64,000 bases of DNA from positions 1,248,001 to 1,312,000 of the forward strand of contig CAVZQN010000004.1 in the NCBI GenBank assembly GCA_963777505.1, given 5' to 3'. Positions within the stretch are counted from its first letter, which is position 1; every line of letters begins with the position of its first letter. The notes below the pieces were generated by a model. It worked only from the letters and a program-made list of their open reading frames with translations. It was not told the origin of the DNA and did no database searches. The position numbers and the translations under genes are program-made. This document shows positions 1,233 through 38,632 of this stretch, in pieces. This DNA comes from an uncultured bacterium. Lineage in GTDB: Bacteria > Acidobacteriota > HRBIN11 > JAKEFK01.

Positions 1233-1672
1233 TTGATTGGCCAGACAATCTCGCACTACACCATTCTAAAAAAGCTTGGCGGCGGAGGAATGGGAGTTGT
1301 ATATGAAGCGCAGGACCTGAGTCTCAAACGTCATGTCGCACTCAAATTTCTTTCCGACTCAGTAGCTGAGACTCCGGAAACACTGGAGCGCTTTCGCCGG
1401 GAAGCACAATCTGCATCCGCATTGAATCATCGAAACATTTGCACGATATTTCACTTGCAGAATGCATTAAAACGTACCAATCGAATTCTGCTTTTCAGAT
1501 CGCCGAGATTTATGCTTTCCGTGGTGAGTCAGATAAAGCATTCGAATGGCTCGAACGCGCTTATGAACAACGCGACGGCGGTCTCGGCGACTTGAAAGGC
1601 GATTTGTTGCTTCGTAACATCGAAAAGGACCAACGTTACGCCGCCTTTTTGAAAAAAATGAATCTGCCTTAG
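1233..1672 (+). pseudogene. Internally deleted paralog of the adjacent Ser/Thr kinase-TPR gene
   Basis: About 72 codons match the kinase N-terminus at 1768 ([15 protein letters not shown]), joined out of frame near 1451 to a match of the C-terminal tail at 3943-4155 ([23 protein letters not shown]). Confidence 0.85.
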
Positions 1673-1767
1673 ATTAAATACCGCGAATCGTTGACCGTGT
1701 AACTTGCGTTTTTTTCTGCAGCCATTAAGATAGCTTAACCACATCTAGCAGAGGGGTCCCCAAAGCA

Positions 1768-4155
1768 TTGATTAACCAGACGATCTCGCACTACACCATT
1801 CTAAAAAAGCTTGGTGGCGGAGGAATGGGAGTTGTATATGAAGCTGAGGATCTGAGCCTCAAACGTCATGTCGCACTCAAATTCCTTCCCGAAGCAGTAG
1901 CAGATACTCCGGAAACGCTGGAGCGCTTCCGGCGGGAGGCTCAATCAGCATCGGCACTGAATCATCCAAACATCTGCACGATATATGAAATTGGTGAACA
2001 TGAAGGTCGTCCTTTCATTGCTATGGAGCTCATGAAGGGTAAGACCTTGAAGCATGCGATTGATGGAAAACCAATGGAGATCGATACCGTGCTCGGATCT
2101 CGGTACACAAATTGCAGATGCTCTCGATACGGCGCATGCGGAGAGAATCATTCATCGTGACATCAAGCCGGCGAATATTTTCGTCACGGAACGGGGTCAG
2201 GCAAAGCTGCTGGATTTTGGATTGGCAAAACAGGGAGCAGCAGCGACTGGAAACACTGAAATGCCAACTGCCAGTACTCCGGCACAACTGACGCAAGCCG
2301 GTTCGACGATGGGAACCGTTGCGTACATGTCTCCGGAACAAGGCCGCGGCAGAGTGCTCGATCAGCGCACCGATCTTTTTTCTTTTGGGGTGGTACTTTA
2401 TGAAATGGTTACAGGTACTCAGCCATTTGTCGGTCAGAGTACCGGAGAAGTGCTCGAAGCCATTTTTTCAAAGCAGCCTACAGCTCCAGTCCGTCTAAAT
2501 CCGAATATTCCTGCTGAACTTGGAACGTATCATATATAAAGCGCTCGAAAAGGATCCCAATCTGCGGTATCAAAGCGCAGCGGAAATTCGAACGGACCTT
2601 CAACGATTGCGAAGAGATTCCTCTGTTGCTTCTAGCGTGGCATCACCTTCTGTAGAAAAAGATACTGCCAAAGTCCACTCTACAAAAAAGTCATCCAAAC
2701 TCTGGATTGGAATCGCTGCTGCAGTTGCAGTAATTGTGTTGCTTGGCGTTTTCTGGTTTGGCCGAAAATCGAAAACGTCAGCACAAGCCGGACAGATTTC
2801 AATTGCTGTACTGCCCTTTGTCAACATGAGTCCAGATAAAAATCAGGAATATTTTTCGGATGGTCTTGCTGAACAACTGCTGAACGATCTAGCTCGAACT
2901 CCTGGATTGCGCGTGATCGCGAGAACTTCTTCGTTTCAGTTTAAAGGTAAGACTGAAGATCTTCGCGTGATTGGTCAAAAGCTGGATGTTGCAAACATCC
3001 TGGAGGGAAGTGTTCGCAAAGAGGGGAACAAGGTGCGGATTACGGCGCAGTTAATTCAGACTTCCGATGGATCTCACTTATGGAGTGATACATACGACCG
3101 CGAGTTGAATGATGTTTTTGCCGTACAGGATGATATTGCACGATCGGTCGCGGACGCGTTGAAAATTACGTTGCTCGGTGAAAAGAAAAGTTCTGTAAAG
3201 TCACAAAACGCGGAAGCATATAACGCTTATCTCCAGGGTCGATACTTCTTACGACGCGCCGGGGCAAGGAGGACTCTGCAAAAGGCGATTGGCTACTTTG
3301 AACAGTCGATTCAACTCGATCCTGACTATGCACCCGCCTGGGTAGGCTTAGCAGGAGTTCACTTTCGGCAGATAGCTTCCGGCCACATATCCTATAGTAG
3401 AAGGACAGGAAAAAATGCGGAACGAAGTGGAAAAGGCGCTGAGACTGGATCCAAATCTCGCTGAGGCGCATTCACTTCTGGGGCGGGTCAAATTGAATTA
3501 CGACTGGGATTGGATGGCAGCAGATGCGTCATTTAAGAAGGCGCTGGAACTTGAACCCGGTAACGCAAGTGCGTTCAGCAACGCTGGAGTCCATGCAGGT
3601 ACGCTTGGCCGATTTGATGAGGCTGCTGAATTGACGCGCAGAGCGATAGAACTCGATCCGCTGAACCCGGGTAACTACTCGAATCTCGCAAGCTGGCACC
3701 ACTACGCAGGCCGACTGAAGGAGGCGGAGGCGGCGTATCGTAAAGCCCTGGAGCTAAACCCAGAGTTTCCCTGGCATACACTTCCGAATTGGTCTTATCT
3801 ACTTGGAGCAGTCGAATCCGCAAGCGGCACTTGCCGAAATGGAGCGCGAAACAGAGCCAGTTTGGCGTGGTATGGGGCTGGCTCTGGGCAGTTTTGCCGC
3901 TGGTAAGAAAAAGGAGGCAGACGCGTTATTAGCCAGAGTACATTGAAGATTTATCAGACTACTGCGGCTTTTCAGATCGCTGAGATTTATGCTTTCCGTG
4001 GTGAGACAGATAAAGCATTCGAATGGCTCGAACGCGCTTATCAACAACGTGACGGCGGTCTTGCTGAAATGAAAGGCGATCCGTTGCTTCGCAACATTGA
4101 GAAGGACCCGCGTTACACCGCCTTCATGAAAAAAATGAAACTGCCTTTGGATTAA
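1768..4155 (+). CDS. Ser/Thr protein kinase with TM helix, TolB-like (adenylate cyclase-associated) domain and TPR repeats; broken by about 4-5 frameshifts
   Basis: GxGx[13 protein letters not shown] and YMSPEQ motifs; TM segment; [18 protein letters not shown]; TPRs spread over consecutive ORFs 1768, 2054, 2520, 3415, 3943. Confidence 0.9.
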
Positions 4156-24700: not shown

Positions 24701-25996
24701 CTAGCGCAGTGATTTGAATGCTGCGCGTAGTTCTTGCACGAGCAGCTCGGGTTGTTCCCACGCGGCGAAATGGCCGCCTTTGTCGAGTTTGTTGTAATAG
24801 ATAAGTTTTGGATACGCCTTCTCGGTCCAACTCTTTGGGGCTTGATAGAGCTCGTCGGGAAAGGCGCTTACCGCTGTGGGGATTGGCACGTTTTTCGGTG
24901 CAAAGAAAGCGAGCTTGCTTTCCCAATAGAGACGAGCTGAAGAGACCGTCGTATTCGTCAGCCAATAGAGCGTGATGTTGTCCAGGATGTCATCCCGTGT
25001 AAGTCCCTCACGTTGACCGTCAAATACGCGCGCCATGAGTGCCAAACTAGTCGCGTCATGGTCAAGCATCCATGCGGCCATGCCGACCGGCGAATCCGCG
25101 ATCCCGTAGAGCGTTTGGGGACGGTTCGCCATTTCGTTCGCGTAGCCAAGGCCATGCTTATAGAAAAATGCGAGCTGATCGTACGCGTGCTTTTCGTCGG
25201 CCGACAGACCGGACGGAGCCGGCGCATCGGCAGAAGCCGCCGTGTTGATGTCGTTTGGCACAGTGGCAGGCATGTTTGTATGGATGCCGATCAATTCCGG
25301 AGCTCCCAGCAGGGACATCTGTTCCGTGACCGCATTCCCCCAATCGCCGCCTTGCGCCACGAATCGTGTGTATCCCAGGCGCTTCATCAACACTATCCAC
25401 GCACGTGCGATGCGGATTGGATCCCATCCGGTCGTGGAAGGCTTGCCCGAAAATCCGTAGCCCGGCAGTGACGGAATCACGACATCGAAAGCGTCCGATG
25501 CGCTCCCGCCGTCTTCTGCCGGATTCGTCAGCGGATCGATGATCTTTAACTGCTCGATGATCGAACCGGGCCATCCGTGCGTGACGATAATCGGCAACGC
25601 ATTTTTCTGTTTCGAACGAACGTGAATGAAATGAATATCCACCCCATCGATCTGCGTGATGAATTGTGGAAGGGCGTTCAGTTTCGCCTCGCATTTGTGC
25701 CAATCATAATCTGTTGCCCAATAGCGAGCGAGTTTCTGAATCGTCGCGAGCTGTACGCCCTGCGACTGATCCGCGACAGTCTCCTTGTCTGGCCAACGTG
25801 TAGCAGCGATGCGCTTGCGGAGGTCATCGAGATCAGCTTGCGGAGCGTTGAAATGGAAAGGGCGTATTGCGGACACACCACTGGTAGATTCGCTTTTTTG
25901 TTGTTGTGTGAACACCATTTCTATTGGTAAAAAAAGCATAGTTACCGAAAAGCATATAACGATCAGTTTCAAAACCGTTTGCATCTTGAATATCAT
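24701..25996 (-). CDS. Epoxide hydrolase (EHN-domain family) with signal peptide
   Basis: IRPF, HGWPGS, QGGDWG, GGHFAAWEQP. Confidence 0.92.
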   Translation of the reverse strand: MIFKMQTVLKLIVICFSVTMLFLPIEMVFTQQQKSESTSGVSAIRPFHFNAPQADLDDLRKRIAATRWPDKETVADQSQGVQLATIQKLARYWATDYDWHKCEAKLNALPQFITQIDGVDIHFIHVRSKQKNALPIIVTHGWPGSIIEQLKIIDPLTNPAEDGGSASDAFDVVIPSLPGYGFSGKPSTTGWDPIRIARAWIVLMKRLGYTRFVAQGGDWGNAVTEQMSLLGAPELIGIHTNMPATVPNDINTAASADAPAPSGLSADEKHAYDQLAFFYKHGLGYANEMANRPQTLYGIADSPVGMAAWMLDHDATSLALMARVFDGQREGLTRDDILDNITLYWLTNTTVSSARLYWESKLAFFAPKNVPIPTAVSAFPDELYQAPKSWTEKAYPKLIYYNKLDKGGHFAAWEQPELLVQELRAAFKSLR

Positions 25997-26164: not shown

Positions 26165-26470
26165 CATTCCAAGCAAGCTGGCCACAAAATACATACATCA
26201 CCCTATACAGATGTTAGTTTCGACGCAAATGGACTCAGTACTAGTTGGCAGGGAACTACATTGATCGTATCTTTATTTTAAGAACTTACCTTGGTGATCA
26301 ATGTCATTCGTATGGCACCAAAAGCAGCTTCAATTCAGACGATCCGATGAACCCCGAGGTTCTTACATACAAATCGAGAGAACATTATGAAAATGCGTGG
26401 GGACGCCTCGAGCTTTTCCGAACCGATGAGCGAGGCCGAGATGTCGTTCGCCTGAAAGGAGTTGGCAACA

Positions 26471-27630
26471 ATGACCCAGAAATTTGTGCGTTACAGTCCG
26501 GACGTTGAACAGGAGGAGCCCGATTTCGAACAAACCCTGCAGCAGGTCCTCGATGACATGAAACAGCACATGCGCGGCTCGCTCAAAACCGAGGGGATCG
26601 GGCTTGTGGTGCGCAACGCCCACGCCAAGGGTTACGGTCTTGCCCGGGGAGAATTTGAAATCCTCAGTGGAATGCCGAACGAATATTCGCAGGGCATCTA
26701 CGCCAAACCGGGACGCCACGAAGCCATGGTTCGTTTCTCAAACGGGACCAATCACGTTGGCGGGGATCGGTTCCTTGGACCGATCACCGGCATCGGGCTG
26801 AAGATTTTCGGAATCGAGGGGAAAACTCTTCTGGAAGATGAGCCGGACAGTCACACCTTCGACTATGCGCTGATCAACCACCCGGTCTTCTTCGTCAACA
26901 CGCTCGCGCATTATGTCTTCATTCAGACTTTGTTTGCCAACCTTGGCCTACCGCCGCCAGCGAACCTTACGCCGGAGGAAAGGCAGGCGGCACTCCACCG
27001 CGTTCTCTACAACTTTGTGACGGGCAAGGGCACGCTGCCTCCGGAGCAGTGGGCCTGGGAGGAACTCGGCGCCTTCCTGCATCTCGCGCAAACCAAGCCC
27101 GTGAATCTCCTCCTCTCGACGTATTGGACTATGGGTGCGGTGCGGCATGGCGACTACGTCGCAAAGGTTCGTGTGGCCCCGGTTCAATCGTTCGCCGACC
27201 GCGTTGAACAGCGAGCTCTCGATCTCACTTCTGCCGAACAAGTCTTCCGGCCGGCGCTCGTAGCGGAGCTGCGCAAGCGACCCTACGAGTTCGACATCCA
27301 GGTCCAGCTCTGCACGGATCTGGCTCAAATGCCAGTTGAGAAAACGACAGTACGTTGGCCGAGAGCCTCTCGCCGTATGTGACCGTCGCGAAATTGCGGC
27401 TGCCGCAACAGGATATCGGCGGGGAAGACAATTTCGAGAAGATGGACAAGACTTCGATGGCCGCCTGGCGCGTCACGGAGCAGCACCGTCCGCTCGGCAA
27501 CATCATGCGTTCGCGCAAGGAGGTCTACCGGCAGTCATCGATTCTTCGTCACAAAGCAAACAACCAGGAGCGTAAGGAGCCGAAGAACCTGGCTGAAGTT
27601 TTCGGTGAGCAGATGGCGGCCACCGGGTAG
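26471..27630 (+). CDS. Short catalase-related heme protein (one frameshift near 27360)
   Basis: RNAHAKG distal His, VRFSNG, QVQL, HRPLGNIMRSRKEVY proximal RxxxY; SD AAAGGAG. Confidence 0.88.
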
Positions 27631-27729
27631 CGCATAGCTGACGGACGAGCACCATACGATGAATCAAGCCATCTATGGCAAGCAATCGTTAGTCATTGCG
27701 TTGCCGAGCATTGTTGAAAGGAGACGATT

Positions 27730-29608
27730 ATGCCTGAAAGAACCACTGCCGCGCGTGCCGCGACAGAAAACAGCAAGACCTACGACCAAGTACACCTATG
27801 ACTATGACCACCTCCCGCCCCTGGCGATGGTAGGTGCTGTGACTGAAGCAGAAGCGTTTTCCGCCCGGCCGGATTGGATTCATCTGGTCGCGCGCTCGGC
27901 ACTGAAGATTCTAATCAACAGCATCATGATCGGAGTCAAAAACAAGGGCGGACAATATCGAATTCGTTCAACAAGTGCTCAAAAATATTCAGGCCGTCGC
28001 TCAGCAACTGAACGGCGAAGCTGGGCGTGACCTGAATAACGCAATTGCCATGGAGTTAGAGAAGCAGGGTTCGCCGACTACGCTGCCTCAATTGAAAGCG
28101 CTGCTGGAAGTTGTAATAGAGCCGTTGGCGCAGACGCTCAACCTTAAAACTTTGTTGGACATCGCTCGGATCGTTCAGCAGTTGGGATCTGTTTCCGGTC
28201 CCGCTTCCAGCCTCGAAGATTACAACCAGGTGTTTCAGTTCATTTCATTGCCGGCGGTCAGCCAGAATTTTCGAGAGGATTCGGAGTTTGCCGCCATGCG
28301 GGTGGCTGGGCCGAATCCGTTAACAATCGAGCGGATGAAAACGCTGGACGAGCGACTGCCGATTACTGATGAACAGTATCAGGCGGTGATGGGGACCCAA
28401 GACACGCTGAAGACGGCGCTGGCTGACGGACGGCTTTATCTAGCCGATTATTCCGCGTTTGACGGAGCCGTAAACGGCAGTTTTCCGGCGGGACAGAAGT
28501 TCAACTATGCGCCACTGGCTTTGTTTGCGGTCCCGCGGGCGGACGATCGTTGGTTCCTGTGGCGATTCAGTGCGGGCCGCGGCCAGGCCCGGATAACCCG
28601 ATCTTCCTGCCGCGAGACGGCGATAACTGGTTGATGGCCAAAACCATAGTTCAGGTTGCGGATACCAATGTTCATCAAGCCGCTAGCCATCTTGGACGGA
28701 CGCATCTGTTCATCGAACCGTTCGTTATTGCTACGCACAACCAGTTGTCGCGCACGCATCCGCTCTTTCTTTTGCTCACGCCGCACTTTGAAGGCACGCT
28801 CGCAATCAACGAAGGTGCCTTGAGTCTGCTCGCGTCGCGAGGCCTTGTAGATTTGTTGCTGGCAAGTTCCATAGATCAGTCGCGAGTGTTCGCCGTGAAA
28901 GCCGCGCAGAGCTATCAGCTGAATCTCAACACTTCCACGCTGCCACAGACGCTGGCTCAACGCGGCGTGGACGACGCGAGCCGCTTGCCGGACTACCCCT
29001 ATCGGGACGATGCGCTGCTGCTCTGGGGTGCAATCAATCAATGGGTCGAAGACTACGTGAATCACTACTATGCGTCGGATGCAGCGGTGCAGGGCGATGC
29101 CGAGGTGCAGAATTGGGTGGCTGAGCTGGTCGCGCACGATGGCGGCAGATTGAACAACATCGGCGCGGCGAACAGGATCAGCAAGCGTACGGAATTGGTC
29201 GACTTGATCACGCTGATCTGTTTTACCGCCAGCGCGCAGCATGCTGCAGTGAACTTTCCGCAGGCTCCGCTTATGAGCTATCTGCCTGCGACGCCACCGG
29301 CGGGCTATTCGCCGTTGTCGTCCCTGACGCAGGAAGGCTTCAGTGAAAATGACTTCTTGAAATTCCTGCCACCATTGGATATTGCAAAGGCGCTGTTGGA
29401 CATTTTGTATCTATTGAGCTCGGTGTATTACACGAGACTGGGCGATTACGGCAACAATTACTTCACCGACCCGGTCATTCAGAATCACCTGGCGAAGTTC
29501 CAGCAAGAGTTGATCAAGATCGAAGCGGAGATCAATGAGCGGAACAAGACGCGGACGCCGTACGAATTTCTGCTGCCATCGAAGATTCCGCAGAGCATCA
29601 ATATTTGA
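27730..29608 (+). CDS. Lipoxygenase (about 3 frameshifts)
   Basis: FAAMRVAGPNP, WLMAK, HQAASHLGRTH, YPYRDD, AQHAAVNF, C-terminal IPQSINI iron ligands; SD before ATG 27730. Confidence 0.92.
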
Positions 29609-29700: not shown

Positions 29701-29791
29701 GGAAGAGGACCCTGTCCCCGCCTAAGATTCGCAGCTCGATATTTTTGGGCCGAATGGGTTCGCATCTTAAGCGGGGACAGGGTCCCCTTCC
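29701..29791. repeat. REP/MITE-like inverted repeat element
   Basis: GGAAGAGGACCCTGTCCCCGCCTAAGAT (29701-29728) versus the reverse complement of 29764-29791, 26/28 identical. Confidence 0.75.
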
Positions 29792-29924: not shown

Positions 29925-30995
29925 ATGGACACGATGCTCGCGTATCGACTGCTGAAAGCGCAGACTCAACCAGAGTTTCAGGACGTGCCGGATCCGCACG
30001 CAGGACCTGGTCAGGTGGTAGTTAAAGTCGCCGGCTCCGGCCTTTGCCATACCGATTTCACGGTCATCTCCGCGACCGAAACTATTGGAAGGACGATCCG
30101 CCGCCTTTCACGCTCGGGCACGAGATCGCTGGATGGGTGGAAGAGGTAGGAAGCGGAGTGAAGGGGTTTCAACGTGGCGATGCAGTCGCCGTGAACCCAT
30201 CATGGGCCAGTTGCGGACGCTGTCACATGTGCCGGTCAGGGGAAGAAAACTATTGCCTCTATCAGAAGGCGATTCGAGCTCCGGCGTCGGTTACGACGGA
30301 GGACACGCGCCATACGTCCTCGTTCCTGAGGCGAGATTTCTCGTGCCCATCGGCGACCTCGACCCGGTTGAGGCGGCGCCGCTTACCGATGCCGGACTAA
30401 CGACATACACCGCCATCAAGTCAGCGCTTCCTGGGATCTATCCGGGCAGCACCGCAGTCGTGATCGGCATCGGCGGGTTGGGATTCTACGCCATTCAATT
30501 TCTTACGGCAGCTGACTGGCGCACGAGTCGTCGCGGTCGTCTCGCGCGAATCCAAAGTGAAGCTGGCCCGGGAGTACGGCGCCGACGACGTCGTCACGAG
30601 TGGTCCTGACGCGGCGGACCAGATTCGCGGAGCTCACCGGCGGGATCGGGGCGGCCTTCGTCCTGGATTGTGTCGGGTGAAACGCAGACGCTTGCTACCG
30701 GGGTCGCCGCTCTGTCGTGGCGTGGTCGCCTGGCGATGGTCGGTGCGGGCGGTGGATCGATTCCGTTCGACTTCTTCAAGATGCCCCCGGGCGCGCAACT
30801 GGTGACGAGCTTGAACGGCGGGAGCTGTCGCGTTGAAGGAGGTTGTCGACATGGCGGCGTTGGGCCGGATCAAGATCTCTCGTGGATCGTTATCCCTCAA
30901 GCGCGGTAAAGCAGGCGTACGACGATTTCGAGCACGAACGTCTGGTCGGTCGAGCGGTCGTTATTCCCGAGGGAGTGGGAGCAGCCGCAGCGTAA
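29925..30995 (+). CDS. Zn-dependent alcohol dehydrogenase (several frameshifts)
   Basis: [30 protein letters not shown] spread over successive short ORFs. Confidence 0.85.
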
Positions 30996-32091: not shown

Positions 32092-33770
32092 ATGTCCGAC
32101 TCCCGGCAAGTTTATCAGCCCAAACTTTCCATTTCCGAACAGGTTTTTCCAGTACTTAGCCCAACACTCATGGAGCGCATCATTCGTTACGGTCGTGTTC
32201 GGAAAGCTGAGCACGGTGAAGTTCTCATTGAGCCCAGAGCAAAAACAGTAACCGTGTTCGTGGTGAAAAGTGGTGAATTGGAACTCGTTCAGTCAGCCGG
32301 AAAGTGATGAAAAAATTGTTGGCATCGTAGGTCCTGGCCAATTCACTGGAGAAGCCAATGTATTATTTGGACGTCCCGGGTTACTACAAATACGTGTGAG
32401 TGAATCTGGAGAATTGATCGAGCTGGATCATAACACCATGATGTCGTTGCTTCAAACCGATAGCGAGTTAGGTGATATTTTCATGCGGGCGTTTATTCTG
32501 CGCCGTGAGGAATTGATTGCAGGGAATTTTGGCGATGTAGTGTTGCTTGGTTCTATTCATTCTCCTGATACTTTCGCATTAAGGAATTCTTAACCCGAAA
32601 TAATCAAGCATATTCTTATATTGATCTGGATCGGAACGCAGCTGCACAGGAACTTCTGGATCGTTTTCAAATTACTGTTAGCGAAGTACCTGTGGTCATC
32701 TGCCGCGGTAACGTAATTTTACGGAACCCTGAAAATTCAAAAATGGCTGAATGTCTGGGCTTCAACGAAAGCATTCGATCAATCAAAAGTGCGTGACGTT
32801 GTCATCATTGGCGCAGGTCCAGCTGGTCTTGCTGCTGCGGTCTATGCAGCAACGGAAGGATTAGATGCAGTGGTACTTGAATCGGAATCACCTGGAGGAC
32901 AAGCAGGCTCAAGCTCCAAGATCGAAAATTATATCGGATTTCCGATGGGCATCTCAGGTCATGATCTAGCTACTAACGCTTTGACACAAGCACAGAAATT
33001 CGGGGCACAAATCATGATCGCCAAAAGCGCAAGCAATCTCAGATGTGATCAAAAACCGTTTATCATTGAAACAAAAGATGATTCGCGAATTCTGGCGCGC
33101 ACAGTCATCATCGCGACCGGGGCGAAATATCGAAAGCTACCGCTGCACAATTTGGAGCAATTTGAAGGACGCGGCATTTACTACGCCGCCACGTTTGTAG
33201 AATCTCAATGGTGCGGTGGCGAAGAAGTAATGGTGGTTGGTGCAGGAAATTCCGCCGGACAAGCTGCAGTATTTCTCGCAAACACCGCAAGTCATGTTCA
33301 CCTGATGTTCAGAACCGATGATTTGTTTCAAAGCATGTCGCGTTATTTGATCGCACGGATCGAAAAACATCCTAAGATTGAGATACATCAACATAAGGAG
33401 ATCATTGCGCTCGAAGGCGAAGATCATCTCAAGCTAATCCGTTACCATGATAATAAAACTCGCAAAGAGATATAGCTGTGCTATTCGGCATCTTTTTTTA
33501 ATGACAGGCGTAATCCCAAATACTCAATGGCTCGATAATTGTGTTGCACTTGATCCGGATGGCTTCATCAAGGCTGGAAATGATATTTCACAGAATGAAT
33601 TGACCGCTGCTAATTGGCCGCTCAGTCGTTCACCTCGTCTCCTGGAAACAAGTCGGCCTGGAATATTTGCCGTGGGTGATGTTCGATGCGGCAACATCAA
33701 ACGTGTTGCATCTGCGGTTGGTGAAGGTTCGATTGCAATTTCCCTTGTGCAACAAGCATTGAATGAGTAG
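32092..33770 (+). CDS. cNMP-binding domain + thioredoxin reductase-like flavoprotein (about 4 frameshifts)
   Basis: cNMP domain (GQFTGE); [52 protein letters not shown]. Confidence 0.88.
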
Positions 33771-34245: not shown

Positions 34246-35268
34246 TCAGCTACGGAATTTCAGTACGACACGAAACCGTACTCTCCCGCTCTGCATTTGT
34301 TCATAGGCTTCTGCAACTCGATCGATCGGAAATATTTCGATCATTGGATGAACGTCCGTCAGTGCACTGAACTCAAGCGTGTCCTGTGAATCCTTCGCAG
34401 TACCTGAGTACCAACCGGCGACTGATCGTCTACCCATGATCAAAGAAAACACATTGATGGATAGCGGTTCAGCAGGTGCTGCCGGAACGAGCAGTGTTCC
34501 ATCGGGTGCTAATCCATCTACCAATGGAGATATTGCTTGCGCATTCGGTGCCGTCGCCAGAATTACACTGGCACCACCAAGTGCTTGCAACTTTTCTACT
34601 ACGTTATTAGCAGATGCATCGATGTAATGATGTGCACCCAATTTTCTGGCGAGTTGCTCTTTGTCGCTTCCGCGATTAATTGCCACTGTATGAAATCCCA
34701 TCTGCCGCGCGTACTGAACTCCAAGATGTCCTAGTCCACCGATGCCATGAACAGCAACGACATCGCCGGGTCGGGCTCCGGAATTTCGTAATGCGTTGTA
34801 CACAGTAACGCCCGGCGCACATAAATGGTCCTGCTTCCTCAGCGGGCACTTCATCAGGAATCGCTGCCAACGCACTCGCTGGTGCAATCATGTACTCAGC
34901 GTATCCTCCATCGAAATCGATACCGGTCACTTTCCGATTAACGCACATAGCGAAGTCGCCGCGCCGGCAATGTTTGCACACGAAGCAATGACCACCGTGC
35001 CAGCCAACGCCGACTCGTTGATCTTTCGACCATGTAGTGACATTGTCACCGACTGCGTCGATCCGTCCCGCAATTTCATGACCAGGAATTCGCGGATACT
35101 GAAGGCCTGGCCACAAACCTTCCTTGACAAGTACTTCGCTGTGGCAAATACCGCACGCTTCCACTTTTACGCGGACTTGACCGGGCCTCGGTTCGGTATC
35201 TCGCGTTCTACTAATTCCCAGTCTCCTCCAGGTTTGCTGATTTGCGCTGCTTTCATTTTCGAAGTCAT
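34246..35268 (-). CDS. Zn-binding alcohol dehydrogenase (about 2 frameshifts)
   Basis: MKAAQIS.., GICHSE, PGHE, CFVCKHC, GIGGLGH, RFRVVL. Confidence 0.88.
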
Positions 35269-35331
35269 AAATTCCTCCAAGGTATTTAATAGCTATCCAC
35301 TTCGATTACTGCCTTCGGCAAAGGCCGGCGG

Positions 35332-35769
35332 TTATTCCCGTCCAGGCAGGCGCTTCGTGATTTCCTGGATTAACCACCCGTTTCCATCCGGATCGCTGAA
35401 GGCAACGAAACTATTGTAAGTTTGTCGTTTGGGATCAAGGCCGGGAGTTATTCCTTCCGAACCGAAATGAAAAGGCTCGCTAACATCAATTCCACGTTTC
35501 ACAAGCTCAGCTCGCGTTGCTTCAATATCAGATGTTACAAGGTACGTCTTCTGATATGAGCCGGGCTTCGCATCCGTGATCCCGTTGCCGATATGAATCG
35601 AGCATTGTGATCCCGGCGGTGTAAGCTGCACGCCGCGAACCTTTTTGCCAGGAGCCACCGGTTGCTCAAAGTCAATATCGACTCGGAACCCCAATTTTTC
35701 TTCGTAAAATTTTTTCGCACGATCCACGTCCGAAACGGGAATCACAACAACTTCCAATTTGAGATCCAT
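35332..35769 (-). CDS. VOC/glyoxalase family protein
   Basis: LEVVVIPVSDVDRAKKFY, FSDPDGNGWLIQE; SD GGAGG. Confidence 0.9.
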   Translation of the reverse strand: MDLKLEVVVIPVSDVDRAKKFYEEKLGFRVDIDFEQPVAPGKKVRGVQLTPPGSQCSIHIGNGITDAKPGSYQKTYLVTSDIEATRAELVKRGIDVSEPFHFGSEGITPGLDPKRQTYNSFVAFSDPDGNGWLIQEITKRLPGRE

Positions 35770-35917
35770 TTGTCTGCCTCCATAAATAATTAAATGGTTA
35801 TTCTTGTTCCATAAGAGTGGTAATCTGGATGCCGAGAACACTTCAGCGGTACTGATCGAAAATAAAAAATATTTTTCGCGGACGTTCGGGATTTTTTGAA
35901 ATTTCGAAAATCCGTAT

Positions 35918-36322
35918 TCACTTTACCAGAACAACTAATGGTTTCCCTTTTTCCACCACATATGTGGCGAGCTCTGCGCCGTTATCGGTTCCAACGTTCT
36001 TCGCCGAGTGGACAGCTCCAGCCGGGATGAAGAGCACATCGCCAGCTTTAAGCGTTGCTGATTTGCCTTCAACCTGATACTCCAGAGTTCCTTCAAGCAC
36101 ATAGATGATCTCTTCGCCTGGATGTTTGTGGTTCGGTGCAACTACCCCAGGATCAATGTCGATGCGGGCCTGGACGACTTCCCGCCCGGGGATTGATAGA
36201 TCGTGTTGCTGCAAATCGGTTCGCTTAACTCCTCCCATCTGCTGAGCGCGCGCTAGGTGCAACGCCAAACCGCCTCCAACAATCATCAAAACTACTAATG
36301 CTATCATTCTAATCTTTCTCAA
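35918..36322 (-). CDS. Secreted cupin_2 domain protein
   Basis: Signal peptide; HKHPGEE..YVLEG; IPAGAVHS. Confidence 0.9.
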   Translation of the reverse strand: MRKIRMIALVVLMIVGGGLALHLARAQQMGGVKRTDLQQHDLSIPGREVVQARIDIDPGVVAPNHKHPGEEIIYVLEGTLEYQVEGKSATLKAGDVLFIPAGAVHSAKNVGTDNGAELATYVVEKGKPLVVLVK

Positions 36323-36925
36323 AACGCGTACCTCCTTTTTTGTGTGGGTGGTTTAAGCGAGCGAAAAATTGATGTTATCTCGCGGTTTATTGAAAACGCA
36401 AAAAGACGCGAAAACGTTTTTTATGCGAATAACGATGGATGCCTTTTTTGGTGTGAAGACTTTTGGTGAAAAATGAATTGGTGTGCGGACATTCCACCGG
36501 TTCAGCCACAACAAGTGAATCTATAATCAAACTGGTTTCATCGCAACACATTCAGCCACTCAGTGGAATCAATCGTGCGTGTTGTTTTTCGTGTTTCGTA
36601 ATTGTTTCTTATAATACTGGAGCAAATTCGGCTGGTTCAACTTGTTTTGCTCCGGATATTCTTCCTTTTGTTCCCTTCAAGGCAGCTTCGATAATTTCCA
36701 CTTCCTACCTTCATAATATGTATGGCAGGGATTCTAGTTTATTGTTAAATTCACTATTAGACTGAATTTTCTTCAGATCTTTTCAACACTCGCGAGTTCG
36801 CTTCAAGTAGTTTTTTTTGGCTCGCAAAAAACGCATCCAAAAAGAAAAGGAGATGCGAAATGTCCTTGAAGCTTCAATCTCAATGCTTTTTCGCATACCT
36901 CTAGCAAGGCAAACAGGAGAATACC

Positions 36926-38149
36926 ATGCCAGAAACCACTGACAAGAGCTCTATTCGTCCGTTTCAAGTGAATTTTCCGGAAGCGGAACTCACCGAATTG
37001 CGCAGGCGTATCATGGCGACACGATTTCCGGAGAAGGAAACCGTCTCCGATTTTTCGCAAGGAGTACAACTCGCCTTCATTCAAACGCTCGCGCGGTATT
37101 GGGCGACCGATTACAACTGGCGGCGGTGCGAGGCGCAATTGAACTCTCATCCACAATTCATCACCGAGATCGACGGGTTGGACATCCACTTCATTCACGT
37201 CCGGTCGAAACATGAAGATGCAATGCCGCTCATCGTCACCCACGGCTGGCCCGGCTCGCCCATCGAGCAGCTGAAGATCATCGATCCACTGACCAACCCC
37301 ACGGCTCACGGAGCTAGCGCGTCGGACGCCTTCCACGTAGTGATCCCGTCGATGGCCGGCTACGGGTTTTCAGGCAAGCCCACGACGCCCGGTTGGGACC
37401 CCGCTCGCATGGCGCGGGCGTGGGTGCAGCTGATGAAGCGCCTCGGGTACAGCCGATTCGCGGCGCAAGGTGGTGATTGGGGTGGGTTCGTCACGAACCT
37501 GATGGCACAACAGGCACCTCCGGAGTTGATCGGCATCCATTTGAATTTCTCCGGTGCCGCGCCCCCTGAAATTGCCAAGGCGCTTCAGTCCGGCGGGCCG
37601 CCGCCGGCCGGTCTCTCGGCTGAGGAGCAGCGGGCATACGACCAGATGGCGTTCCTTTACCAGCACGTCCCGACGCAATTGATGATGGCCGCACACCCGC
37701 AAACCCTGTACGGCTTGGCCGACTCACCCGTCGCCCTTGCCGCCTGGATGATCGACCACGACGTGGCCAGCTATGGGCGCATCGTGAAACTCTTTCTTGA
37801 TGGGGAGCCCTACGGCGACCTCACACGGGACGACATTCTCGACAACATCACCCTTTCCTGGTTGACGAACACGGGCGTGTCCAGCGCTCGGCTCTATGTG
37901 GAATACAAGGGCGCCTTTTTCAACGACTACAACATCTCCGTTCCGGCTGCCGTAAGCGTCTTCCCTGAGGAGGTTTACCAAGCTCCGCGGAGTTGGACCG
38001 AGCGCTCCTACCACAATCTCATCCATTTCAACACGCTCCCCAAAGGCGGCCACTTTGCTGCATGGGAACAGCCGCAACTGTTCTCAGAAGAGGTACGCAC
38101 TGGCTTCAGGTCGCTGCGCGGCGACAAAGCAAAGGCGCAGAATCGTTAA
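36926..38149 (+). CDS. Epoxide hydrolase (EHN-domain family), cytoplasmic paralog
   Basis: IRPF, HGWPGS, QGGDWG, GGHFAAWEQP. Confidence 0.92.
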   Translation: MPETTDKSSIRPFQVNFPEAELTELRRRIMATRFPEKETVSDFSQGVQLAFIQTLARYWATDYNWRRCEAQLNSHPQFITEIDGLDIHFIHVRSKHEDAMPLIVTHGWPGSPIEQLKIIDPLTNPTAHGASASDAFHVVIPSMAGYGFSGKPTTPGWDPARMARAWVQLMKRLGYSRFAAQGGDWGGFVTNLMAQQAPPELIGIHLNFSGAAPPEIAKALQSGGPPPAGLSAEEQRAYDQMAFLYQHVPTQLMMAAHPQTLYGLADSPVALAAWMIDHDVASYGRIVKLFLDGEPYGDLTRDDILDNITLSWLTNTGVSSARLYVEYKGAFFNDYNISVPAAVSVFPEEVYQAPRSWTERSYHNLIHFNTLPKGGHFAAWEQPQLFSEEVRTGFRSLRGDKAKAQNR

Positions 38150-38548
38150 CTTCCCGTCGGTCCTGTCGCGCAGAAATGCGCGGCAGGCCATGTGATCTTA
38201 CATCTGTCCGACTGAAGTCATAAGGATGTCACAATTCAAAGTACGAACAACGAATTGCGATTTCTAATTTCGAATGAGTTTGATCTTAATTTGTAATTCG
38301 ATTGATTCGGTTAATCGTAGTTCAAATTAACAGGAGCGAGCGAAGAAATGAAAACAAAAAAAGCTGCTAAACCCTCGCAACCGCAAGGATAGTATCTAAG
38401 AGGCATATTTGTTTTCGCTCAATTTCTCTTTGTTTCTGTTTGTATCAAATCATGCCTCTTTACGGACAGCTTGATGGGACAAATCGGCACAAACTCGAAA
38501 AGTCAAAATGGTAAGTCATTCACTTGCAGTTACTAATAGACTGATGAG

Positions 38549-38632
38549 TGCCGAAGAGAGGACTCGAACCTCCACAAGGTTGCCCTTACTAGAACCTGAA
38601 TCTAGCGCGTCTGCCAATTCCGCCACTTCGGC
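38549..38632 (-). tRNA. tRNA-Leu(CAG)
   Basis: GCCGAAG acceptor stem, D-loop GGAATTGGCAGAC, anticodon arm CTAGA-TTCAGGT-TCTAG, long variable arm, GGTTCGAGTCC; CCA not encoded. Confidence 0.96.

Follow-up and report, generated by a model that had tools for sequence, protein, structure and literature searches.

A small catalase-fold heme protein (CAT) and an iron lipoxygenase (LOX) are encoded by two adjacent genes in a 64,000-nucleotide stretch of DNA from an uncultured bacterium of the Acidobacteriota (assembly GCA_963777505.1, contig CAVZQN010000004.1, positions 1,248,001 to 1,312,000 of the forward strand; the whole stretch is referred to below as the window). We consider the chances about even that the two genes are a co-oriented pair in an acquired island in which CAT processes the hydroperoxides made by LOX, the breaks in both reading frames being errors of the assembly. 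Both identities, which a preliminary description had proposed from the letters of the DNA, were borne out by Pfam, tblastn, the predicted fold, and the positions of the motifs, and all heme ligands (the RNAH His and the RKEVY Tyr) and iron ligands named there were found. The two genes comprise the following features.

26454..26461, forward strand: Shine-Dalgarno sequence of CAT, GAAAGGAG, 9 nt 5' of the ATG at 26471 (from the sequence)
26471..27630, forward strand: CAT, small catalase-fold heme protein, 386 aa in intact relatives (tblastn, fold model)
26606..26632, forward strand: distal heme motif of CAT, VVRNAHAKG (Arg, Ala-His), His codon at 26621-26623
27508..27552, forward strand: proximal heme motif of CAT, RSRKEVYRQSSILRH (Tyr ligand and Arg), including RSRKEVY, Tyr codon at 27526-27528
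27716..27723, forward strand: Shine-Dalgarno sequence of LOX, GAAAGGAG, identical to that of CAT, 6 nt 5' of the ATG at 27730 (from the sequence)
27730..29608, forward strand: LOX, iron lipoxygenase, about 625 aa in intact relatives (Pfam, tblastn)
28673..28705, forward strand: HQAASHLGRTH of LOX, two His iron ligands, aligned to the solved lipoxygenase 8x8f
28805..28819, forward strand: INEGA of LOX, Ala at the stereo-control (Coffa-Brash) position, in the same register as HINTLA of ALOX15B
29237..29257, forward strand: QHAAVNF of LOX, His and Asn iron ligands, aligned to solved lipoxygenases

The Pfam profile Lipoxygenase (PF00305) matched window positions 28550-29608 with 207 bits (E 5.4e-61; cut-off 23.6) and the intact relative P0121 with an E value of 9.8e-65, and the best solved relatives were 8x8f (E 6e-117) and the lipoxygenase of P. 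aeruginosa, 4g32 (E 1e-115). With a C terminus reading ...SINI (Ile codon 29603-29605), the full iron-ligand pattern of H-x4-H, H-x3-N, and a C-terminal Ile carboxylate is present; HQAASH, HAAVN, and the terminal Ile are presumably the residues that hold the iron, and the Ala of INEGA is, in the residue numbering we assume, the Coffa-Brash site. According to the Coffa-Brash rule for this Ala/Gly site, Ala denotes an S-type lipoxygenase, the type that had been suggested for LOX. Orthologues of 620 to 630 aa show 87 to 95% identity in the C-terminal piece; several carry the label Pyrinomonadaceae lipoxygenase, in agreement with the acidobacterial setting recognized in the preliminary description. 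The next group comprises 630-aa lipoxygenases of Nostocales (56 to 59% identity); NpLOX1 of Nostoc punctiforme is reportedly 13S specific. The length of NpLOX1 is given as 630 aa in the available text of PMC10177866. LOX is a single-copy gene in the genome of the window; of 60 related genomes, one contains a LOX, and a genome of the same genus lacks it, which fits the expected sparseness of such genes. An NCBIfam search returned no family for either CAT or LOX. Because a stop codon (TAG, 27628-27630) and a 99-nt spacer lie between them, CAT and LOX are unfused, each with its own Shine-Dalgarno sequence as had been described, and they are probably cotranscribed. A CAT-LOX fusion protein was ruled out by the stop codon, the spacer, and the separate Shine-Dalgarno sequences; in three related loci (L006, L012, and L019) the gap is about 70 nt.

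For CAT, tblastn with the relative P0001 placed residues 1-299 in frame 3 and residues 298-384 in frame 2 at 97.7% identity. Intact relatives of 385 to 386 aa, one of them labeled "catalase family protein [Acidobacteria bacterium]", are 86 to 98% identical, as seen among the best 120 of 1610 matches at E ≤0.001; an exhaustive search gave 3593 representative clusters at E ≤0.001, and no Deinococcus member was present among the 10 representative clusters looked up. The Pfam profile Catalase (PF00199) reached 18.7 bits on an intact relative (E 0.001), under its curated cut-off of 25, and did not match the CAT pieces of the window at E 0.01. In addition, CAT has 386 aa compared with at least 475 aa for the catalases matched, so that it lacks both the profile score and the length of a monofunctional heme catalase. 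Single-sequence searches of the Protein Data Bank (PDB) gave weak catalase matches only (E 0.01-0.03), located around the distal His, and in the PDB sequence and profile matches VVRNAHAKG lines up with the distal His of catalases. The structural model of CAT (predicted local distance difference test [pLDDT], 73; predicted template modeling score [pTM], 0.77) had as its top Foldseek match MAP-2744c (3e4y/3e4w; E 2e-12; TMt, 0.69-0.71), and 3e4w was also the best PDB sequence match of the CAT profile (E 2.7e-7). CAT consists of the catalase core alone, as does MAP-2744c, which comes first among its solved matches in the sequence comparison as well as in the structural one. Judged by the model, the relationship to catalases is clear by fold, while by sequence it is remote. 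In an alignment of 36 family members ranging from 97% to 31% identity, including Acinetobacter proteins of about 330 aa, R48, H51, R88-F-S, R349, Y353, S357, R360, and H361 were invariant.

The gene neighborhood of CAT was compared in a locus scan using one genome per species, which yielded 80 loci, 39 of which (L003-L041) form a close family with 60 to 99% identity; Pfam scanning covered L003-L020 and L022. The records of the close family carry the labels Acidobacteriota/Pyrinomonadaceae, Manganitrophus, Verrucomicrobiia, Chloroflexia, Vitiosangium, Arthrobacter, Alphaproteobacteria, Pseudonocardia, and Streptomyces. Among the closest 20 loci (L003-L022), 7 have a LOX gene no more than 1.1 kb from CAT, with two LOX lineages represented in four arrangements. 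LOX-A, the orthologue of the window LOX, directly follows CAT in L006, L012, and L019, whereas L007 shows the order epoxide hydrolase (EH), CAT, 3HCDH, LOX, enoyl-CoA hydratase (ECH). A divergent 696-aa protein of the LOX family (Pfam E 1.6e-15; 21 to 24% identical to LOX-A) is encoded next to CAT in three further loci, upstream in L004 and downstream in L005 and L018.

L004:5671-7761, divergent LOX-family gene
L005:9210-11078, divergent LOX-family gene
L018:5214-7082, divergent LOX-family gene

This protein retains H-x4-H, and its second ligand motif looks atypical. In L015, a LOX is located 7.6 kb from CAT at the edge of the locus; this locus also encodes, directly 5' of CAT, a large AAA_16/Trans_reg_C regulator and a MalT-like TPR protein (L015:5338-7740, reverse strand). 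EH orthologues (61 to 79% identity) occur in L007, L009, L012, L016, L019, L022, and L035, where they lie upstream of CAT within about 3 kb; EH is directly 5' of CAT in three of the four other LOX-A loci (L007, L012, and L019) and inverted in the window. Gene fusions provide a further source of context. Among 18 long CAT relatives scanned, an animal-heme-peroxidase domain occurs in P0316 and P0373 (both with Ala-His; 32 to 36% identical to CAT), DyP in P0343 and P0383, a RoxA-like cytochrome c in P0333 and P0379, and patatin in P0308, all of them distant from CAT; others carry MFS, PBP, SnoaL, or DUF domains.

The proposal of an oxylipin-forming pair, made in the preliminary description, gains from the LOX genes close to CAT and from the frequently adjoining EH. 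In the window, the order within the island is EH, then CAT, LOX, an alcohol dehydrogenase (ADH), and ECH. The data show the identities of the genes, their ligands, the fold, the synteny, the fusions, and the indels; what we infer concerns the substrates and products of LOX and CAT, their coupling, and their expression in the window organism. LOX, being of the cyanobacterial/proteobacterial type with the stereo-control Ala, would convert free C18 or C20 polyunsaturated fatty acids (PUFA), either exogenous or derived from membranes, to S-hydroperoxides. CAT, with a Tyr-ligated heme in a catalase core devoid of the C-terminal parts of catalases, would most likely use a fatty-acid hydroperoxide as its oxidizing substrate and cleave the O-O bond at the heme, giving the reduced hydroxide or else epoxy-alcohols, keto-epoxides, or compounds of the aldehyde type; EH, ADH, and ECH could then work up these products. 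CAT itself would not be dedicated to LOX but would be the core of a hydroperoxide module together with one or two proteins of about 209 aa (u209) and DyP, to which LOX genes would have been joined several times over.

Two groups of observations weigh against a functional pairing of CAT and LOX in the window, those on the company and kinship of CAT and those on the integrity of the genes, which are taken up further below. As to company, most members of the CAT family have no LOX within 8 kb, and tblastn found none in L021-L082 (L021-L041, n = 21; Acinetobacter-type loci, n = 41). The CAT of L003 has no LOX in the 8 kb on each side; as it is 99% identical to P0001, the same enzyme appears to serve both contexts. 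The commoner order is CAT, one or two paralogous u209 proteins, a 456-aa DyP, a Zn-dependent ADH, and ECH, with u209 in 23 and DyP in 22 of the 39 close-family loci, across several phyla. Examples of the CAT-u209-DyP module, which is seen within L003-L038, are the following.

L008:8001-11287, CAT-u209-DyP
L022:8001-12050, CAT-u209-DyP

The genome of the window contains no u209 and no close DyP, only a DyP of 40% identity elsewhere. Neither CAT nor LOX has a signal peptide as judged from the sequences, while the neighboring EH looks exported. A PfaD-type PUFA synthase was not found in this genome, in which the only PUFA-related genes belong to the FA_desaturase family and have no assigned specificity.

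[quoted passage not shown] In the available text of PMC5617202, the heme set shared by coral cAOS and catalases consists of the heme-binding Arg, the distal His, and the proximal Tyr, and the coral enzymes have a Thr-His pair (T66-H67). The invariant R48, H51, R88, R349, Y353, and R360 of CAT match this set (PMC5617202), so that CAT shares with cAOS and the catalase-related hydroperoxide lyase (cHPL) the catalase core fold, the proximal Tyr, the Arg residues, and the distal His. It does not share the Thr preceding the distal His: A50 is at least 90% conserved among the 36 aligned sequences, confirming the Ala previously noted, and among 81 representatives with the motif this position is Ala in 48, Val in 16, and Thr in 2. 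With its heme ligands conserved and the Thr-His pair missing, CAT appears from its sequence to be a small catalase-core heme protein whose lineage is not that of cAOS. The pairing itself finds partial support, while a coral-type allene oxide synthase or hydroperoxide lyase as the partner of LOX, the parallel originally drawn, is not supported by these results or by the prevalence of u209 and DyP as neighbors.

The distribution of neighbors also agrees with an alternative in which CAT is part of a peroxide module of its own with u209 and DyP, acts on organic or lipid peroxides or on an unrelated substrate, and came to lie beside LOX through island traffic or as part of a loose peroxidase defense, with no dedicated oxylipin step; we regard this as possible, if somewhat unlikely. 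LOX accompanies CAT in 7 loci (8 with L015), all among the closest 20, a reach well exceeded by u209 and DyP, and the LOX-free CAT of L003 and the DyP-CAT fusions P0343 and P0383 are as this alternative would have it. The neighboring DyP is of class C and matches DrDyP of Deinococcus radiodurans (8re3; E 1e-187), identified as DR_A0145 in the available text of PMC10820274; DR_A0145 adjoins the catalase-like DR_A0146, for which the accessible part of PMC6300522 reports no catalase activity, although DR_A0146 is placed in the CAT family by synteny, not by sequence. At the DNA level, CAT is 84 to 96% identical across L003-L022, compared with 66 to 86% for the adjoining genes, and the similarity has sharp edges, beginning at 26443-26445 and ending at 27630. 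This pattern suggests that the single CAT gene has been exchanged alone or has been kept or constrained unusually. The GC content of CAT stays at about 0.58 in hosts with flanking DNA of anything between 0.46 and 0.68. On the other hand, the occurrence of two LOX lineages in four arrangements beside one CAT is difficult to account for if LOX and CAT are not functionally linked, in L006 and L019 a LOX has been set between CAT and u209, and the fusions of the fatty-acid-dioxygenase type and to patatin point to lipid substrates.

A broader interpretation would unite the two sets of neighbors: the Ala-His catalase-related proteins may be a distinct, very widespread class of hydroperoxide-transforming heme enzymes that pass between soil bacteria almost as one-gene cassettes and stand at the center of a modular CAT/u209/DyP toolkit for lipid peroxides, to which two LOX lineages were added independently by adjacency and heme dioxygenases by fusion. 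We offer this tentatively, as an unlikely generalization. If it is true, the acidobacterial EH-CAT-LOX set makes oxylipins of an undescribed type, and class C DyPs gain a physiological substrate. The u209 protein matched no Pfam family, and its Atlas clusters are named "hypothetical protein" alone; its structural model (pLDDT, 75) had no PDB match at E ≤0.001, the best rows being ABM-type alpha+beta barrels with E values of 0.01 to 0.1.

The second group of observations concerns the frame breaks. CAT contains one, at about 27358-27361, where the window reads CC at 27359-27360 and 8 of 8 aligned relatives read CCC. In the window assembly LOX is not one uninterrupted reading frame, having three 1-nt breaks where the orthologues are intact: compared with 4 of 4 LOX-A loci, the window has one extra base each at about 27778 and 27944 and one base missing at about 28535. 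The tblastn matches of P0121 and P0123 correspondingly run through frames 3, 1, and 3, with a further break near the start of LOX. Programmed frameshifting was ruled out, as the relatives read in one frame. We consider it very likely that the breaks in CAT and LOX are consensus errors, which in a GC-rich island could arise from context bias, thin coverage, or a mixture of strains. This assessment rests on read-through proteins, which were built with X at the breaks and whose private residues were counted against 116 CAT and 42 LOX relatives: consensus error is likelier than gene death because the read-through proteins have no private changes at conserved sites. Private residues amounted to 1 of 384 in CAT and 1 of 620 in LOX, none of them in columns conserved to at least 95%, and leave-one-out counts on intact relatives had medians of 2 (CAT) and 9 (LOX). 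No in-frame stop was seen in either read-through protein.

The alternative, raised as a possible refutation in the preliminary description, is that the genes are dead here, the GC-rich island being a decaying acquisition and the frameshifts real mutations. The absence of nonsense codons and of private substitutions at conserved sites counts against it, as does the nature of the four changes in CAT and LOX: each involves one base and falls in a short run of G/C or in a context rich in G/C. Likewise, the L018 assembly has a different 1-nt indel only 6 nt from the CAT break, and split CAT matches occur in other assemblies too (L018, L023, L033, L036, L038, and L039). What favors decay is the pattern on a larger scale. 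At least nine breaks are spread over 5.4 kb across CAT, LOX, ADH (at least four), and ECH (one), as in a decaying island too. Four aminoacyl-tRNA synthetase frames of 655 to 937 aa are intact, showing that the breaks are local, not genome-wide; in the window, housekeeping genes are likewise mostly whole, and other accessory genes are also broken, namely a Ser/Thr kinase-TPR gene (1233-3906), a cNMP-binding/pyridine-nucleotide-disulphide oxidoreductase (TrxR) gene (32092-33475), and a Zn-ADH gene (34246-35164). Long open reading frames (ORFs) cover 0.70 to 0.74 of the genome bins with a GC content of 0.50 to 0.56, compared with 0.85. Consensus error is also favored by related soil contigs from four public runs (two DNA and two RNA libraries), which show indels at the sites of the breaks. 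In these, the indel at 27358 was shown by one contig in each of the four runs, that at 27778 in two runs, and that at 27944 in three; the indel at 28535 was explicit in one run, a clipped contig of another reads the extra C, and the contigs of runs X1 and X2 did not show it. The soil runs carry at most 0.36 of the words of the window stretch and therefore represent relatives, not its source, and the search yielded no sequencing run of the strain itself; the RNA-library contigs, likewise those of relatives, could stem from carried-over DNA. Taken together, we regard death of the genes as improbable. That CAT is an ordinary small catalase that scavenges H2O2 and shields the cell from side reactions of LOX is less probable still, for although CAT keeps the proximal Tyr and, on the distal side, the His and an Asn-type motif, and the Ala before the His is small and apolar like the Val of catalases, its Pfam score and length fall short of those of catalases, its best sequence relative, MAP-2744c, is not a catalase, and the D. 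radiodurans gene beside the matching DyP, a putative family member by synteny, is the one reported to lack catalase activity.

The pair in the window, read as CAT acting on LOX hydroperoxides, resembles several known systems. MAP-2744c of Mycobacterium avium subsp. paratuberculosis is, like CAT, a small catalase core with a Tyr-ligated heme motif; this 33-kDa protein is only 19 to 22% identical to CAT, has Leu before the distal His, and is about 80 residues shorter. We know of no LOX context for MAP-2744c. A catalase-fold heme protein is combined with a LOX, as here, in the coral proteins cAOS-LOX of Plexaura homomalla (8R; PDB 1u5u and 3dy5) and cHPL-LOX of Capnella, whose Arg/His/Tyr heme set is that of CAT according to the available text of PMC5617202. 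In contrast to these fusions, the window genes are separate, CAT is 12% identical to cAOS and has Ala-His in place of Thr-His, LOX is of the Ala (S) type of a bacterial clade and not an 8R enzyme, and the CAT family usually lacks LOX.

Further parallels come from cyanobacteria and fungi. Catalase-LOX fusions (Anabaena PCC 7120 and Acaryochloris marina) and a catalase-heme-dioxygenase fusion acting on linoleate are on record for cyanobacteria, and in them the catalase-like heme partner transforms the hydroperoxide made by the fatty-acid oxygenase (PMC11719350, in the text available). The CAT relatives fused to animal-heme-peroxidase domains, with 32 to 36% identity and Ala-His, resemble the catalase-heme-dioxygenase fusion. 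Compared with the cyanobacterial fusions as described, the window genes are unfused and LOX has its full 625 aa rather than being a mini-LOX. Unfused genes in the arrangement of the window are found in Fusarium graminearum, where the catalase-type gene Fg-cat lies beside a 13S-LOX gene and its product converts the 13S-hydroperoxide to keto-epoxides (PMC11719350, same portion); this system is fungal and is likened to the window pair by gene arrangement alone. The DR_A0146/DR_A0145 pair of D. radiodurans (DrDyP, 8re2/8re3) combines a catalase-like protein with DyP, as most CAT relatives do through their DyP neighbor, whereas in the window a LOX stands where those relatives have u209 and DyP; the kinship of DR_A0146 to CAT is drawn from synteny alone. 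In Myxococcus, finally, LOX products are epoxidized and then opened by an epoxide hydrolase, a hepoxilin- or trioxilin-type route (An et al. 2018, cited in the available part of PMC13319228), and an EHN-type EH flanks CAT-LOX in the window, L007, L012, and L019. The epoxy alcohol of the Myxococcus route is made by LOX itself, with no catalase-like protein. We regard the window pair as a variant of the known theme of LOX and a catalase-related protein, and the CAT-u209-DyP module as the more novel lead.

Lipoxygenases are rare in bacteria, where their roles are mostly unknown, and the Acidobacteria, which are hard to study, rank with the most abundant bacteria of soil. Relatives of the recurring set of LOX, catalase-like protein, and EH are also seen in soil RNA libraries; such a set would suggest that bacteria process polyunsaturated lipids of plants or fungi and would supply new enzymes for making oxygenated fatty acids. 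The usual partnership of CAT with DyP and two proteins of about 209 aa offers a testable lipid-hydroperoxide hypothesis for DyPs whose natural substrates are described as unknown in the available text of PMC10820274. A literature search found no paper on an acidobacterial LOX/catalase pair, and a term search of the accessible text of a 2026 review on bacterial LOX (PMC13319228) found neither catalase nor Acidobacteria.

The genes surrounding CAT and LOX are the following.

24701..25996, reverse strand: epoxide hydrolase (EH), 431 aa, intact, divergent from CAT (Pfam EHN, E 1.2e-39, and alpha/beta-hydrolase)
29701..29791, no strand: inverted repeat of 31 nt, 90% complementary, with a 29-nt spacer, between LOX and ADH (sequence)
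29925..30992, forward strand: Zn-dependent alcohol dehydrogenase (ADH), at least four frame changes; intact orthologues near CAT in L013, L015, L016, L020, and L022
31030..31894, forward strand: enoyl-CoA hydratase/isomerase (ECH), one frame change; orthologues near CAT in many loci

With GC contents of 0.535 (EH), 0.583 (CAT), 0.55 (LOX), and 0.596 (ADH-ECH) against 0.446 for the genome, these genes probably constitute a GC-rich accessory island that was acquired horizontally, as far as composition and gene content indicate. The N terminus of EH is hydrophobic and resembles a signal or anchor. The inverted repeat, which may be a terminator or an operator, occurs once in the genome and is absent from the related loci. 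Profiles for rpoB and rpoC (TIGR02013, TIGR02386, and PF00562) had no match in the genome of the window, whose completeness is 95.9%, while all control genomes were matched. At 34246-38632 there is a second accessory set, in which no integrase was seen among the ORFs of at least 120 aa. It encodes the frameshifted Zn-ADH mentioned above together with a glyoxalase, a cupin, and another EHN epoxide hydrolase (36926-38149). The accessory stretch ends beside a tRNA-Leu gene (38548-38632), which may mark an island boundary.

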